64,000 nt of DNA, from NCBI GenBank assembly GCA_040755695.1, contig JBFMAK010000001.1:384637-448636 (forward strand), given 5' to 3'. Origin of the DNA: Candidatus Iainarchaeum sp. Lineage in GTDB: Archaea; Iainarchaeota; Iainarchaeia; Iainarchaeales; 1-14-0-10-31-34. This document shows positions 9,607-59,873 of this stretch, in pieces. A program made the translations under genes and the position numbers. Positions within the stretch are counted from its first letter, which is position 1; each line of letters begins with the position of its first letter. Under the pieces are notes generated by a model. It did not search any database. It had not been told where the DNA came from and worked only from the letters and a program-made list of their open reading frames with translations.

Positions 9607-9776
9607 GCGGAGGTGGCGGAGTGGTCCAACGCACCAGCTTGGAGCCTGCCCCTTTTTCTTTTTAAAAAAAAGAAAAAGCGGCAAGTTGCCGGAAAAAGAA
9701 AAAGGTTTTGGTGGCCGGATAGCTGGCGAGCGCAAGCTCACGCGAGTTCGAATCTCGTCCTCCGCGTCCGCCCTTT
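9607..9776 (+). tRNA. tRNA-Ser(GGA), class II, with 76-nt intron (9645..9720)
   Basis: Acceptor GCGGAGG/CCTCCGC+G. Anticodon stem CCAGC...GCTGG. Loop TT-GGA-G|intron|A. Long variable arm CGAGCGCAAGCTCAC. T-arm GCGAG-TTCGAAT-CTCGT. The intron contains a palindrome plus mini-repeat copy. Confidence 0.6.
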
Positions 9777-17627: not shown

Positions 17628-18941
17628 ATGAAGGTTCTTTCAATAATTTTGTTTCTGTGTTTCATGCTGGGCCTTGCGGGAGCCATCTCCTCCCAGGAGG
17701 CAAAGGATTTCCTTACAAGCGAAAGCCATTTCCTGGAGGAAGGGCAGAGCATTGAAATCCTGCCCAATTTTCCAGTGCAATACAATAAAGAGAAGTTCTG
17801 GGTTGCAGTCATAATTACAGAAGAGAGCCCTAGCGGCTTCCTTGCAGTGAAATACTCTGCAAAAGAGATTTCGCTTAATAAGACAGCAAACACAGAATTA
17901 TTCAAGACAGTCTATGTTTTAAGGTCACTGAAAGACTACAAGGAAAAAAATTCTGCTGTCTGGGTTTTTGCGAGCTCAAACAAGACCTTCTTCCAGACCC
18001 TCAATTCTGTCACCTCAGGCTCAGGTTCAGTTTATTATACTCTGGGAAACATTTCAGACGAATTAAATACTTCTGATGCCAGAACCCTCACAAACGAAAT
18101 GAGTGCAATCCTCTCCGAGATGAGCTCAAGGGCTTTCACCTTAGAAGAAAAAACAGACGAAATAATCAAGGTAGAAAACGATTTTGTTAATTCAACCAAT
18201 ACAAGCCAAACAAATGCATTGAAAGAAAAATATGATGAATTCTTTCCCTTGCTTGAAGAAATAAACAGCTTAAGGCAGGACTACGAAAACAAGACTGTTG
18301 AGTTAAAGACCTTAATCTCCAAATCAGACAAGACGGCAGGAGAAAAACAGCAGTTGATTGCGCTGGCGAGTTCTCCTCAGGAATTCCAGAAACTTGACTC
18401 AATAGCAAAAAATTCTTCTGACTTGTATCAAGGCATCCAGTCCATTTACGCTAAAGCCATTTCAAATGTCTCGACATGGGTTGACAACGTTGACTCAATG
18501 AAGAAAAGGAATGATGCCTACAACCTGCTTTACTCTGATGACCCTGATTTGTACAAGAAAACAAAAAACTATTTCTCCAAGCTTAACGATTTAGTGAAGT
18601 TTATTCTGGATGAAAACAACAAGCCTTACTGGAAAGAATATGAAAAAATTGACTCAATGCAGTCCAACTGGAATAAGGCAGAATTGAACTTCAAGCAGAA
18701 AAAATACGAGAACGTGCAAACTTATGCCTTGAAGGCAAAGAATGACGCAGTAACCATATTCCAGGGAGGCTTTGTGCAGCAGGGAAGCGACATGCAAAAT
18801 CTGATTATTTACATTGCGGTAGGATTAATTGTACTGCTTGTTGCGCTCATGCTCTTCAAGAACAGGAACAAGCTCTTCCCGTCTCCAACGCAAGCGCAAA
18901 AAGAACAGGAAATAATCCCTTACGGCTGGCAGAAAAGCTGA
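17628..18941 (+). CDS. hypothetical secreted protein with N-terminal signal peptide and C-terminal TM anchor
   Basis: N-terminus MKVLSIILFLCFMLGLAGA. C-terminus LIIYIAVGLIVLLVALMLF followed by basic residues. Confidence 0.45.
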   Translation: MKVLSIILFLCFMLGLAGAISSQEAKDFLTSESHFLEEGQSIEILPNFPVQYNKEKFWVAVIITEESPSGFLAVKYSAKEISLNKTANTELFKTVYVLRSLKDYKEKNSAVWVFASSNKTFFQTLNSVTSGSGSVYYTLGNISDELNTSDARTLTNEMSAILSEMSSRAFTLEEKTDEIIKVENDFVNSTNTSQTNALKEKYDEFFPLLEEINSLRQDYENKTVELKTLISKSDKTAGEKQQLIALASSPQEFQKLDSIAKNSSDLYQGIQSIYAKAISNVSTWVDNVDSMKKRNDAYNLLYSDDPDLYKKTKNYFSKLNDLVKFILDENNKPYWKEYEKIDSMQSNWNKAELNFKQKKYENVQTYALKAKNDAVTIFQGGFVQQGSDMQNLIIYIAVGLIVLLVALMLFKNRNKLFPSPTQAQKEQEIIPYGWQKS

Positions 18942-21167: not shown

Positions 21168-22184
21168 TCATTCTTGCTTGCAGGCGTCAAGGCCTGGGTG
21201 CAACATGCATATTGCAGTTTTAAGGTTTTCATATCCAACCAACACATACTTGCAGTCAATTACAAAGGCTGGAGCATACTCCAGCCAGTAAGATTCTGCT
21301 ACCTTGTTGTCTTCTTCTATAATGCTTAAAGTATTGGCATCATCCAGGCATTGCTCGAAAGCTGCCTGCTGGTCAAAAGTAAGCTGGAGGCCTAAGCCTC
21401 CTTGCACGAAAGTCCACCTGTCATCAAACAAATTCATCTTGTTTGCATCAATATTGCCATTGGCGTCAGAGAAAATTTGCTTGTACAAGTATTGCTGGTA
21501 ATCATTGAATTCTAATTGGCCTTGAAGCCTAACGCACTCTGCTGCAATTTGTGCATACAGGGAGTACTGCCCCATTAAACTGAAGTTCTTGAATTTGTAC
21601 TGCAATTGTGGAGTGAATTTTCTTTTTAATTGGTCTACTGCGTCCAATGACTTCCAGCAGGGATAACAGTAATAGTCTGCGAACTCTTCCACTTTCACTT
21701 TATTTTGGTCTGCACTGCATTTTGCTTCAAAGAACATCAAGTTTTTTGGCTTGCTGTCCAAGTAGCTTTCAGGCACAACGTAAAAACCATTCACTAAAGC
21801 ATAGTTCTGCCTCATTAAAGGGCTTATTGCCGCATAGCTCCTTATTGTTTTTTCTTCTACTAATGCAGAAGGAACCATGAATAAATTGAAGTCTGAAATA
21901 TAATGCTTGTTCTCCTCTTTTGAGAGGTCAATCAATTCTTCTTCAAAGTCAACCTTTTTTACAGTGAAGGACCTTTTAATTGAATTCTCTGTGTCGCAGA
22001 AAGGGCATTCAGAAGCATAAAAGAGAATCAATTTCACTTTAGGCAAAGGCTCAATTACTGGCCCTGTTTGAGAGTTCTCATTCATAAGTGAAATAAGCTT
22101 GAATCCTGCAAAACCTAAAGCAATGCCTAATATGACAATCAGCGCAATTACATATGGAGGGAAACCAAGCTTTTTTTTTGCCAT
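21168..22184 (-). CDS. membrane-anchored thiol-disulfide oxidoreductase with two thioredoxin-like CxxC motifs
   Basis: N-terminal TM helix. CPFC at about residue 60 and CYPC at about residue 175. Confidence 0.45.
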   Translation of the reverse strand: MAKKKLGFPPYVIALIVILGIALGFAGFKLISLMNENSQTGPVIEPLPKVKLILFYASECPFCDTENSIKRSFTVKKVDFEEELIDLSKEENKHYISDFNLFMVPSALVEEKTIRSYAAISPLMRQNYALVNGFYVVPESYLDSKPKNLMFFEAKCSADQNKVKVEEFADYYCYPCWKSLDAVDQLKRKFTPQLQYKFKNFSLMGQYSLYAQIAAECVRLQGQLEFNDYQQYLYKQIFSDANGNIDANKMNLFDDRWTFVQGGLGLQLTFDQQAAFEQCLDDANTLSIIEEDNKVAESYWLEYAPAFVIDCKYVLVGYENLKTAICMLHPGLDACKQE

Positions 22185-23601: not shown

Positions 23602-23632
23602 AGTTTTTATTTTTAGGGAAAAAGATAAAAAA

Positions 23633-24094
23633 ATGAAAAAGAAATTATTAGGTTTGGTTACTGTTGCAATTATTTTGTTGTTCTTTTCCTCTAAGTTTTA
23701 TGCACTTCTTGATTCAACTGAATCAGAGTTTATAGAATCATTCAAATGTGGCGATGCAAATGGCGATGGCGTGGTGTCAGTAACAGATATTGTTTGGCTG
23801 GTAAATTTTTTGTTTAAGGGCGGCACTGCCCCAGTGGATATGGATGGAGCAGATGCAAATAATGATGGAAAGGTGTCAGTAACAGATATTGTTTGGCTGG
23901 TAAATTTTTTGTTTAAGGGAGGTCCAACCCCAAACTGTGGTCCTGAGCCCCAGCCTAAAATAATTAGTCCTTCAAATTATGAAATAATTGGTGGTCCTGC
24001 TCTGGTTTCTGTGATAGATGACTCAAATCTTTCTCCTTCAAAAATAAAAAAAATGAAGTTAGAATATTCTTATGATAATGTTAATTGGACTTAA
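23633..24094 (+). CDS. secreted protein with two dockerin type-I repeats
   Basis: Signal peptide followed by GDANGDGVVSVTDIVWLVNFLFKGG and ADANNDGKVSVTDIVWLVNFLFKGG (DxNxDGxxxxxD Ca-binding loops). The two repeats are about 95% identical at DNA level. Confidence 0.55.
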   Translation: MKKKLLGLVTVAIILLFFSSKFYALLDSTESEFIESFKCGDANGDGVVSVTDIVWLVNFLFKGGTAPVDMDGADANNDGKVSVTDIVWLVNFLFKGGPTPNCGPEPQPKIISPSNYEIIGGPALVSVIDDSNLSPSKIKKMKLEYSYDNVNWT

Positions 24095-25087
24095 ATAGCA
24101 GAGTATGGTGCCGCAGGAAGCAGTGCCTGGGATACAATATTTGATACTTCAATTATATCTTCTGGTCCTCTTTATGTTAAGACAACAGAATACTCTTATT
24201 CTGGAACAGTGTCCAATACCGTTCAAGTGACAGTAAACAAACTGCCAGTAGCTCACGCTACAACAATGTACAACCCTTATAATAATGAATGGTTTTTTGA
24301 CGCAGGCACTTCATATGATTCTGACGGCTCAATTACAGGCTATGAATGGGATTTTGGCGACGGCAATACAGGCACTGGGTCAATAGCATCACACAAGTAT
24401 TCTCCGCCCGGATTTTATAATGCGAGTTTGACTGTTACTGATGATTTGGGTTTTAATGGAACTTATTTTTTTGTTCCGGGCTACGATGCTAACTGCGGCT
24501 GCAAGAAAATGACAATAAGAAGCACAGGAGAATTTGACAGAAATGATTACAAGTTAGAAAAAACACTTATAAAGAATAATATTTCGTCAGACTATAATAA
24601 GCTTGGTGGCTTTGATGACATTAATTGGCTTGATTCAAAAAAAATATTTTTTATTGGAACCTTTTTTGAGGTTCAAGCAGAACTAACTGATAATACAACT
24701 GACCCAAAGCTCTGCGATGAACGGCAGAAAACAAAAGCTACACGTCATTACAAAAACAAAGACTTTAACTACGAGTTTTTGGGCGTAAAGTGTGGTTTCC
24801 TTTCACCTAATTGGTGTAATGACGATTACATGGAAAAAAATGACACTTACAAGAAAAAGCATTATCCAAAATTAATTAAATGGATTGACGCCCCAGGCAC
24901 TAGATTAAGGAAGGGCGACATGAATGTTGATGGATATACCCACAAATCAAAATTCTGGGCTGTAGTAGAAGGGTCAGCAGGAAAATGCGAGTGCTTTTTT
25001 GAACAAGAAGCAATTTATAATGTAAACGGAATCAAAATCTCAAATACAATAAAAAATTTCAATGGAACAAATTGTTTTGCAGGCTAA
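24095..25087 (+). CDS. PKD-domain protein; in the same frame as the upstream dockerin gene, separated only by one TAA
   Basis: WDFGDGNTGTGSIASHKYSPPGFYNASLTVTDDLG matches the PKD consensus. The frame is open from 24095. The first canonical start is GTG at 24209. Confidence 0.45.
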   Translation: MAEYGAAGSSAWDTIFDTSIISSGPLYVKTTEYSYSGTVSNTVQVTVNKLPVAHATTMYNPYNNEWFFDAGTSYDSDGSITGYEWDFGDGNTGTGSIASHKYSPPGFYNASLTVTDDLGFNGTYFFVPGYDANCGCKKMTIRSTGEFDRNDYKLEKTLIKNNISSDYNKLGGFDDINWLDSKKIFFIGTFFEVQAELTDNTTDPKLCDERQKTKATRHYKNKDFNYEFLGVKCGFLSPNWCNDDYMEKNDTYKKKHYPKLIKWIDAPGTRLRKGDMNVDGYTHKSKFWAVVEGSAGKCECFFEQEAIYNVNGIKISNTIKNFNGTNCFAG

Positions 25088-26690: not shown

Positions 26691-26834
26691 ATGGAGCAAA
26701 AAGCGCAAGGCGCATTAGAATACCTGCTTTTATTAGGCTCTGCAGTGCTCATAGCAGCAGTTGTTGTAGTAGTATTAACGCAATTGACTGACTTAACAAA
26801 AGGCAAGGCACAAAACCCCTCCCAAACGCACTAA
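26691..26834 (+). CDS. short archaeal pilin-like protein with class III (type IV pilin-like) signal peptide
   Basis: MEQKAQG|ALEYLLLLGSAVLIAAVVVVL is a classic DUF361/class-III signal (KxQG then A/EY hydrophobic). 47 aa. Not in the ORF track because it is under 60 aa. Confidence 0.45.
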   Translation: MEQKAQGALEYLLLLGSAVLIAAVVVVVLTQLTDLTKGKAQNPSQTH

Positions 26835-47581: not shown

Positions 47582-47652
47582 TTCCCTCTGCCCCTTTCTC
47601 TTTTTAAAAAAAAGAGAAAGTGGTAAGTTGCCCCAAAGAGAAAAAGAAAGGT
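47582..47652 (+). repeat. Solo copy of the palindrome + mini-repeat element seen in the tRNA cluster
   Basis: ctctgcccctttctctttttaaaaaaaagagaaagtggtaagttgccccaaagagaaaaagaaagg is nearly identical to 10016..10088, including the CTCTGCCCC tRNA-trailer-like left end. Confidence 0.65.
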
Positions 47653-52096: not shown

Positions 52097-52256
52097 AAAA
52101 TTCACTTTAATTAAGCCAAAAAATGCTTTTCCTAAAGGCAAATACCTATTAATTTACGTAATGTTTTTAAACACTTTTAAAGCCAATTAATATAACAAAA
52201 ATGATTAATTATACATAATTTCGTTTTATTTTTGTCAATTGAAGAGGAGGAATAAA

Positions 52257-52991
52257 ATGGACAACATCAAACTTCTTTCAATAACATTGATAGTAGCAAG
52301 CCTAATTCTAGCAGGAACAATGCTTTACGTTGGAAACAACCTGAACACAAAGCTCACAGGACTTGCAGCACTTTCAGCCCAGCCTCAAAACACAGACCAA
52401 ACACAGCCACAACAGCAACAGCCTACACAAGTGCAGCCAACCCAGCCAACGCAAAACAATAACGGGAAAATCACATTAAAGAACTCCAACCCGCCAACAA
52501 CAGGCCAGGCAAACGCTAAAGTCACAATAATTGAGTTCTCTGATTTTCAGTGCCCTTACTGCGCAAGATTCGTGACAGACACTTATCCTCAAATCAAACA
52601 GCAGTACATTGACACAGGGAAGGCGAAGTTAATATTCATGCAGTTTCCTTTGAGCTTCCACCAGTATGCCCAAAAGGCAGCAGAGGCAGCATACTGCGCT
52701 TTCGAGCAAGGAAAATTCTGGGAATACCATGACAAATTGTTTGCAAACCAGTCAAATCTTGATGTTACCTCGCTGAAGAAATATGCTACAGACCTAAAGC
52801 TTGACACAGCAAAATTCAATTCATGCCTTGACACCTCAAAGTATGCCAGCCAAGTGCAGTCAGACCTAACAGAAGGAACTTCTTTAGGGGTGAATGGAAC
52901 GCCCGCCTTCTTCGTGAACGGCAAGCTCATAAGCGGGGCACAGCCTTTCTCAGTCTTCCAGCAGGCAATAGACGCAGCACTAGCAAGCTGA
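52257..52991 (+). CDS. DsbA-like thiol:disulfide oxidoreductase, membrane-anchored with Gln/Pro-rich linker
   Basis: TM helix, QPTQ-rich linker, FSDFQCPYCARF (CPYC active site). GGAGG lies 8 nt upstream of the ATG at 52257. Confidence 0.6.
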   Translation: MDNIKLLSITLIVASLILAGTMLYVGNNLNTKLTGLAALSAQPQNTDQTQPQQQQPTQVQPTQPTQNNNGKITLKNSNPPTTGQANAKVTIIEFSDFQCPYCARFVTDTYPQIKQQYIDTGKAKLIFMQFPLSFHQYAQKAAEAAYCAFEQGKFWEYHDKLFANQSNLDVTSLKKYATDLKLDTAKFNSCLDTSKYASQVQSDLTEGTSLGVNGTPAFFVNGKLISGAQPFSVFQQAIDAALAS

Positions 52992-58107: not shown

Positions 58108-59873
58108 ATGAAAAAGAAATTTTTTATTGCATTGATTTTATTGTGCTTTCTCTTCTCTTCTGCCCTTGTTTCAGCCAAATCCTATTACCTTCCCAAGACT
58201 GAAGTGTACATGAAGATTAATCCTGATGCATTGATTAACGTTGAAGAAAAGATTAGCTTTAATTTTTTGGGTGACTTCTCTTTCGCTTACAGGGACATAC
58301 CAAAAGGGCAGGGCAGTTGAGCAATATCCAGGTGCTTGAAGGCTCTCAGCCACTAAAATTTGAGTTAATTGACTTTGGCAGCAACACAAGAATTAAATGG
58401 TATTACACTGCTTCAGACGAGCAAAAGATTTTCACTTTAAAATACAATTTAAGCAAGGCTGTTACAGCTTACTCTGATGTAGCTGAATTGAACTGGAAGG
58501 TGTGGGGCGATAACTGGGCTGTCCCATTGAATGAATTGTACGGCTGGATTGAGCTTCCTTCCGATGTAAATAATCCAAAGGATGTTTACACCTGGGGGCA
58601 TCCTGCAGTGAACGGGAGGATTGGCTTGATTGAAGGAAACAAGATCCTGTTCCAGACATTCAATGTTCCTGCAAACCAGTGGGTTGAAATCAGGGTTGCA
58701 TTTCCCGTTTCCCTGCTTTCCTCCACAGAGAACGCAATTGCCCGCAATAGAGCCGGACTGCAGGGGATAATTGAAGAGGAGAAGAATTATCAGGCTGCTT
58801 CAAAATTAAATTTGATTCCTAAAGACTTTGAATTGCTTTTAGTGCTTTTCTTGTCGATTCAAATGGCCTTTTTCGGTTTTGTCTGGCATTACTTCGGCAG
58901 GGAACCAAAAATTGAATATGAAGCATATTATGAAAGGGAAGTGCCTTACGATTACAGCCCTGCAGTAGTAAGCGTTTTAATGCACCCATTAACAAAGACG
59001 CCTCAATTGAACCAGATAGTTGGGGAGATATTAAATTTATGCTTGAAAGGGAAATTAAGGCTTGAACAAATAAAAAAGTCAGGTTTCCTTGATAAGGGAG
59101 AATACAAAATTCATATAATTAATTCTTCAGCAGAAAACCTGCCTGAAAGCGAAAGGCTTCTCCTCAATTTGATTTTAGATGCAGCAAAAGGAAGATTTGA
59201 AGGATTAATCCTAAAAAAATTCAAGGAAGACAAAACGCCAAAGGAATTGCTTTTATCAGAGCTTGAAAGCTATTTAAGGAACAAGCCTTCCAGAGCCCAA
59301 TCTTTTGCAGAAGACTGGAAGAAAAGCGTAAAAGAAGAAGCTGAAAAACTTGGTTTCTTTTCAAAAAAGAACGGAATAATTCATTACATTGCTGGCTCAA
59401 TAATTATATTAATAATTTCCTTTATTGTTTCTCCTGTAATAACAATTGCAGTATTAATTGGTGCAGTGCTTCTCCAGTTAATTTTTCCTGAATCTCTCCC
59501 CAACAGGACAAAAGAAGGTGCATTGCATTACGCTAAATGGATGAACTTGAAGAAGTTCTTGGAGGACTTCAGCAAACTCAAAGAAATGCCTCCGACTGCG
59601 CTGCCTTTATGGGAGAAGTATTTGGTTTACTCAATTCCTTTAGGGGTGGCAAAAAAGGTGCAGGACGCAATGGATTACGTGTTCAAGGATTACAGAGGCG
59701 CATATAATTCCTCAATCTTTGTTGGTTCATATACGGCCTTCTCTGTCTCAGGCTTTGGCTCTGCTGTTTCAGGCTTCTCTTCTGCTTTTGCTTCTGCTGC
59801 AACCGCTGGGAGCGGAGGCTTTGGCGGCGGAGGCGGCGGAGGAGGGGGAGGCGGCGGAGGCGGAGCAGGCTGA
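58108..59873 (+). pseudogene. DUF2207-family membrane protein split by a -1 frameshift near 58300..58320
   Basis: The 58108..58320 ORF has a signal peptide plus the start of the N-domain (...YRDIPKGQGS*). The 58317..59873 ORF (TTG start artefact) continues in the -1 frame with the typical C-terminal TM helices and GGFGGGGGGGGGGGGGG tail. The junction lies in the direct repeat gggcagggcag. Confidence 0.5.

Follow-up and report, generated by a model that had tools for sequence, protein, structure and literature searches.

Archaea of diverse groups, Archaeoglobus among them, are known to encode dockerins and cohesins that are not part of cellulosomes (PMC9012536; Bayer 1999 and the survey by Peer et al. 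2009, both as cited there), and ANME archaea encode many dockerin and cohesin proteins (PMC9012536). The proteins of Archaeoglobus fulgidus and ANME carry type I-like dockerins with two duplicated segments, each a Ca loop followed by a helix, and these dockerins are fused to non-enzymatic extracellular domains of the Ig/PKD type with no link to cellulose degradation. The first-pass annotation of the locus analysed here had called dockerins rare in archaea, which overstates the case. For genes with an apparent interruption, PMC8037382 gives archaeal recoding as established only for UGA-Sec, UAG-Pyl and the −1 frameshift of Saccharolobus fucA1, and a review of archaeal recoding (PMC8211752) leaves UAA unmentioned.

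Here we describe a gene of this known kind, archaeal non-cellulosomal dockerin surface proteins, that adds to it a nonsense codon. The gene lies in a 64,000-nucleotide stretch (the window) of a metagenome-assembled genome (MAG) of a DPANN archaeon (Diapherotrites), and shares with the Archaeoglobus and ANME proteins the duplicated dockerin segments and the non-enzymatic Ig/PKD-type cargo. Unlike those proteins, it has its dockerin at the N terminus, right after the signal peptide, carries an undescribed C-terminal β module as cargo and is interrupted by a stop in the copy at hand, with no cohesin found in the window. We conclude, with a probability of about 0.9, that positions 23633..25087 are one gene interrupted by one codon, and consider the stop most likely to be of an ordinary kind, a recent nonsense mutation or an error of assembly, rather than a recoding signal. 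As a finding about stop codons this is minor, a routine split gene; the sole new element is the C-terminal module, which represents a small undescribed family.

The upstream open reading frame (plus strand, 153 amino acids) runs from an ATG at 23633 to a TAA at 24092-24094, after which the frame continues unchanged through 330 stop-free codons to a second TAA at 25085-25087. On base composition, 330 open codons would arise by chance with P ~1e-10, and over 24095..25084 the two alternative frames are closed by 19 and 39 stops. The first-pass annotation had the open frame and the joined length of 484 amino acids right; the residues on either side of the stop (x) read NVNWT-x-IAEYGAAGSSAW, or, over a longer stretch, LEYSYDNVNWT-x-IAEYGAAGSSAWDTIFDTSIISSGPLYVK. 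A six-frame scan of the window found this to be the only place where a single stop separates two long open stretches of which the second has no start codon at the junction. GenBank annotates two coding sequences, with no pseudogene flag: MEW6295122.1 ('dockerin type I repeat-containing protein') and MEW6295123.1 ('PKD domain-containing protein'; 24227..25087, plus strand, GTG start, 286 amino acids). The latter (P0001) is 100% identical to the downstream part of our translation and its record is that of a Candidatus Diapherotrites archaeon MAG.

Ahead of the ATG, by 18-29 nt, the T/A-rich element TTTTTATTTTTA (23604..23615, plus strand) is, as read from the sequence, a possible TATA-like archaeal promoter box, in which case the mRNA would be leaderless or have a short leader. 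Residues 1-24 (23633..23704, plus strand) follow the pattern of a Sec-type signal peptide (MKKK, a hydrophobic core, then ..KFYA), and the closest homolog, P0121, begins in a similar way, as do most other homologs. The type I dockerin module comes next (residues 40-99; 23750..23929, plus strand), where the match to Dockerin_1 (PF00404), at 42.5 bits (E 7.6e-11; residues 40-93, profile positions 2-56 of 57), clears the cut-off of 22.9. Its Ca loops, DANGDGVVSVTD (23753-23788) and DANNDGKVSVTD (23852-23887), are each followed by IVWLVNFLFKGG, so that a 12-residue EF-hand-like Ca loop (D-x-N/D-x-D-G-x-x-x-x-x-D) and a helix occur twice in succession, the duplication by which dockerins are recognized. 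Weak Pfam matches to EF hands cover the same residues, and a model of P0121 places helices, with low pLDDT, at positions equivalent to the dockerin helices. The first-pass annotation had named both features in 23633..24094; the sequence pattern agrees for the signal peptide and the profile score for the dockerin.

Between the dockerin and the PKD domain is an Ig-like β-sandwich (joined residues ~108-205; 23954..24247, plus strand), defined by alignment to residues 93-186 of P0121, and the in-frame TAA that interrupts the gene (24092..24094, plus strand; context TAA-A) falls inside it. AF2, given the family alignment, models P0121 with a mean pLDDT of 81 and folds residues 93-186 into a nine-strand β-sandwich (pLDDT 79-96), and across 13 homologs the motif FEYSxDGxxWxxI...WDTxxLxxGxY extends over the stop position. 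No Pfam family matches the Ig-like domain of the window protein, that of one homolog gives a weak Big_7 match, and the Foldseek matches to the complete P0121 model are adhesins, S-layer proteins and arrays of Ig/FN3 domains in tandem. The PKD domain (joined residues 202-275; 24236..24457, plus strand) passes the thresholds of both PKD_4 (PF18911; 65.4 bits, E 4.8e-18, threshold 27) and PF00801 (39.8 bits, threshold 23.5), and in the P0121 model it superposes on the PKD domain of collagenase ColG with a target TM score of 0.83-0.87 and an rmsd of 1.6-1.8 Å. The product ends in an all-β module of about 200 residues with six conserved Cys (24479..25084, plus strand), delimited by family search and AF2. 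A PKD domain and a C-terminal module had been expected downstream of the stop, and both are there; what that description overlooked is the Ig-like domain that precedes them, with the stop inside it, and the small undescribed family to which the module belongs.

P0121, an uninterrupted archaeal metagenome protein of 473 amino acids, is the best family match (44% identity in the C-terminal module) and has the same domain order as the window protein: a signal peptide, two dockerin repeats, an Ig-like domain of about 95 residues, PKD and the Cys-containing C-terminal β module. With X at the stop, the joined 484 residues align to it by BLASTP over 451 amino acids at 38% identity (E 5e-114), collinear and without a gap at the stop. 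The P0121 gene is uninterrupted on three independently assembled contigs (L001-L003, from JGI and ENA metagenomes) with archaeal-type neighbours; these neighbour genes differ from those in the window, and no synteny is seen. At 38% identity and in a non-syntenic position, P0121 counts as a homolog of like layout rather than as a proven ortholog. Searches with the joined sequence and with a profile returned mostly multi-PKD proteins, and the former missed P0121.

The stop column corresponds to N138 of P0121, within a predicted strand (residues 137-143), and is a sense codon in 13 of 13 aligned homologs, encoding N, T, S, P, E, L or K. These 13 comprise P0121 and 12 others, most of them without a dockerin, which have the Ig-like domain, PKD and C-terminal module as their common core. 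Since the stop sits in a high-confidence strand of the Ig-like sandwich, the TAA cuts the fold mid-way. Both halves thus align collinearly to uninterrupted homologs across a stop inside a conserved domain, the pattern of a disrupted gene, and the proposal that the two frames are halves of one secreted dockerin-PKD protein is upheld by a closest homolog that is a single open reading frame. Orthologs split into two genes with their own starts were not encountered, nor did the repeats fail against the dockerin model. A fusion origin for P0121 was considered and rejected, as every homolog has the domain that the stop interrupts.

P0121 differs from the window protein in having no stop, in its neighbours and in its dockerin helix, LVYLAQYMFQDG in place of IVWLVNFLFKGG. 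Its contigs also carry the MEP-pathway genes for DXP synthase, IspD, IspF and DXP reductoisomerase (L001:15846-18975; L002:10159-15735), beside an archaeal-type PF04414 D-Tyr-tRNA deacylase, HVO_A0114 and DUF7090. Archaea normally use the mevalonate route, so the MEP genes are unusual if the contig is archaeal.

Taken at face value, the public annotation describes two genuine genes, one for a short secreted protein with a dockerin (MEW6295122.1) and one for a PKD protein whose translation starts independently at GTG 24227 (MEW6295123.1), and in-frame GTG codons do occur at 24209 and 24227. We find this hardly credible. The boundary would divide a single β-sandwich that is conserved in every homolog, even in those without a dockerin; the second product would be a Cys-containing protein of extracellular type that lacks a signal peptide; and its GTG start falls in the VNKxPVA linker, a conserved stretch that connects the Ig-like domain to PKD and at which no complete homolog begins. 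Neither GTG is preceded by an evident ribosome-binding site or TATA-like box, and inspection of the sequence before GTG 24209 and GTG 24227 revealed nothing comparable to TTTTTATTTTTA. Reinitiation close to the stop was likewise rejected: the one ATG in the vicinity (24105) is in a different frame, and in the frame of the gene no start precedes GTG 24209 after the stop. MEW6295123.1 is an annotation artefact of the split, and in the public record MEW6295122.1 and MEW6295123.1 should stand as one interrupted coding sequence.

A single gene could still be expressed in full if the TAA were real and subject to leaky or programmed readthrough, yielding both a 153-residue secreted dockerin stub and the 484-residue protein. 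The intact frame and a downstream part that appears fully functional are compatible with this idea, which has no other support, and we regard it as improbable. The stop is not conserved, with sense codons in P0121 and 12 further homologs, and it lies within a β strand, such that the short product would carry an unfoldable half domain. Its TAA-A context is that of the ordinary terminators of the window, where TAA ends 41 of 70 open reading frames and TAA-A is the commonest terminator context. No stimulatory RNA structure was detected: the 130 nt from the stop onward (24086-24215) fold no better than shuffled sequences (z = −0.92). Thus neither a conserved stop nor a leaky context or downstream structure, the usual marks of readthrough, was found.

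The tRNAs of the window, Leu (UAA anticodon, which reads UUA), Trp, Val and Ser(GGA), include no suppressor. An unannotated tRNA at 9607..9766 (plus strand), found by Rfam and missed by ARAGORN, was considered for this role and rejected, as we read it as a class II tRNA-Ser(GGA) interrupted by an intron of about 79 nt; the hairpin of that intron (TGCCCCTTTTTCTTTTTAAAAAAAAGAAAAAGCGGCAAGTTGCC) has a near copy at intergenic positions 47589..47650. Genome-wide reassignment of TAA was rejected as well, given the 41 of 70 window frames that end in TAA and the absence from the window of any other gene split by an in-frame TAA. Like the established archaeal recoding sites, the locus would encode one protein across an apparent interruption; unlike them, it has UAA as its codon, an unconserved stop and no SECIS-like, PYLIS-like or other structure, and unlike fucA1 it keeps its frame and hence needs no slippery site. 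Were occasional readthrough nevertheless to take place, one DPANN gene would supply a short secreted dockerin 'plug' together with a full-length dockerin-tethered binding protein, and archaea would have their first described case of UAA readthrough.

For an interrupted gene, what remains to be weighed is whether the lesion exists in the organism. The first-pass annotation had offered a very recent nonsense mutation, a sequencing error or stop-codon readthrough; we retain the first two and find the third without support. The locus has the appearance of the nonsense pseudogenes and split-gene artefacts of MAGs, with the same single in-frame stop against intact homologs and two coding sequences called, of which the latter begins at an alternative start codon inside the gene. 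It departs from ordinary MAG nonsense pseudogenes only in that its downstream part shows no further decay: 50 of 57 family-conserved positions (at least 80% conserved) are kept in the downstream half, including every conserved Cys. The absence of decay implies that the lesion is very young, or absent from the organism, or that the stop is bypassed.

That the stop is a genuine, very recent nonsense mutation or a population variant, making this a young pseudogene, is a reading to which we give even odds. Young single-lesion pseudogenes are common in surface proteins. AAA (K), GAA (E), TCA (S) and TTA (L) are each one base from TAA and each encode a residue found in the homolog column, so a single substitution is enough; the absence of further downstream lesions suits an intact gene equally well. 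If the TAA arose in assembly or base calling, or is a minority allele taken as the consensus, the organism would have an intact gene of 484 amino acids, and this we hold to be possible though distinctly less probable. The sequence comes from a MAG with a single 581-kb contig; the 330 downstream codons are flawless, and the C-terminal module that they encode is predicted at pLDDT 90.5; and one substitution restores a residue of the homolog type. Against an error stands the nature of the change, for the stop is outside any homopolymer run longer than 3, and frame-preserving substitutions are atypical of long-read assembly errors and very rare in short-read consensus.

A second gene of the window bears on the same question. 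A DUF2207 membrane-protein gene (58108..59873, plus strand) is split into open reading frames of 70 and 518 amino acids by a 1-nt frame change, with the junction at about 58299-58320 within CCAAAAGGGCAGGGCAG, whose short homopolymers are a typical setting for indel errors. The 70-residue frame holds a signal peptide and N-domain profile positions 3-41, and the 518-residue frame holds N-domain positions 48-172 and the C domain. The split is a real frameshift or else an assembly error of the homopolymer type. Being the second disrupted envelope gene of the window, it fits a genome or an assembly with a few lesions, and it favours an error or a segregating variant at the dockerin gene.

No second assembly of this population turned up in the metagenome and genome collections searched by exact-DNA and protein scans. 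A metagenome scan for exact copies of the DNA on both sides of the stop, the codon itself being masked as NNN, gave no match; the protein-based metagenome scan gave only P0121's own contig and two PKD matches; and of two scans of genome contigs one was empty and the other gave only a PKD match in a Saprospiraceae MAG, nothing closer than P0121. In a database of 5.8 billion proteins, a word-indexed search with the C-terminal module found only the protein itself, and a search with the joined sequence nothing closer than P0121.

The two dockerin repeats had been put at about 95% DNA identity. We measure 86% over 81 nt and, for the full period of 99 nt, 75%; an exact 48-nt core is common to both (23773-23820 = 23872-23919). 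The helix-encoding DNA is identical between the repeats over this ~48-nt core and the Ca-loop codons differ, a pattern seen within each gene, this one and that of P0121, whose repeats (L001:10072-10267) also have a long exact DNA core, of a sequence unlike that of the window gene. An exact core shared within a gene and different between the two genes suggests intragenic gene conversion, which may keep both dockerin halves alike in the two genes examined. As for a partner, no cohesin was found among 20 window frames scanned with Pfam, including all those with hydrophobic N termini, or by phmmer of the window with a cohesin-bearing protein as the query.

The C-terminal module was traced further by an exhaustive HMMER search with its 202 residues (24479..25084) against 1.84 billion cluster representatives, of which 38 belong to its family. 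AF2 folds the module confidently (pLDDT 90.5, pTM 0.87), and its motifs can be written CGC..M, LC.E.Q, C.F...WC.DDY, W.D.PG and C.C, or, in another form, CGCxxM, LCxEGQ, WCDDDY, WxDxPG and CxCxW. It has no match in Pfam or NCBIfam, and no sequence in the PDB matches the protein outside its PKD domain. Foldseek gives no significant match to the module (best E 0.018 in the PDB, with TM ≤0.30; best E 2e-3 in BFVD), its weak top matches being generic Ig-like or E-set sandwiches. An Ig-like domain always lies upstream of the module, and PKD does so too in 18 of the 22 members scanned; a long-insert subgroup has an SSDPRYDS...DDPY insertion. This defines a rare family that combines an Ig-like domain, PKD and a confidently folding Cys-containing C-terminal β module. 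Fusion to a dockerin occurs in the window protein, in P0121, which has an archaeal context, and in P0141, making the dockerin form a candidate surface-attachment protein in archaea that carry the family.

Two DsbA/Thioredoxin_4-like proteins, membrane-anchored or secreted, are encoded in the window at 21168..22184 (minus strand) and 52239..52991 (plus strand), a pair implying that this DPANN archaeon forms disulfide bonds outside the cell. Such bond formation would fit with the C-terminal module, which has six conserved Cys and three predicted disulfides.

We propose that the intact protein would be a secreted, non-cellulosomal protein consisting of a Sec signal peptide, a dockerin, an Ig-like sandwich, PKD and a Cys-containing β 'head'. 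It would be exported by way of its Sec-like N terminus and anchored, in a Ca-dependent manner, through its dockerin in a cohesin of a surface or anchoring protein. A stalk would be made up of the Ig-like and PKD domains, and the C-terminal module, judging by its position in the protein, may be a head that binds a ligand or partner. Such an arrangement suits a role in cell-surface adhesion or binding in a DPANN archaeon. The TAA, which a single-base substitution would have made, falls in strand 5 of the Ig-like domain, and under standard decoding only the 153-residue stub would be made, with the signal peptide, the dockerin and half a sandwich, leaving the part that encodes PKD and the head with neither a signal peptide nor a start of its own.

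Other putative secreted or surface proteins are encoded nearby. A 437-residue open reading frame at 17628..18941 (plus strand), 5 kb upstream of the dockerin gene, has a signal-peptide-like N terminus and may be secreted; it has no Pfam match at E <0.01. At 26691..26834 (plus strand), a 47-residue frame beginning MEQKAQGALEYLLLLGSAVLIAAVVVVVL resembles, by its sequence, archaeal proteins with a class III (type IV pilin-like) signal peptide. In its other content the window looks archaeal, with an intron-containing tRNA, genes for RNase HII and a ZPR1-type zinc finger, and ATPase families of archaeal kind.
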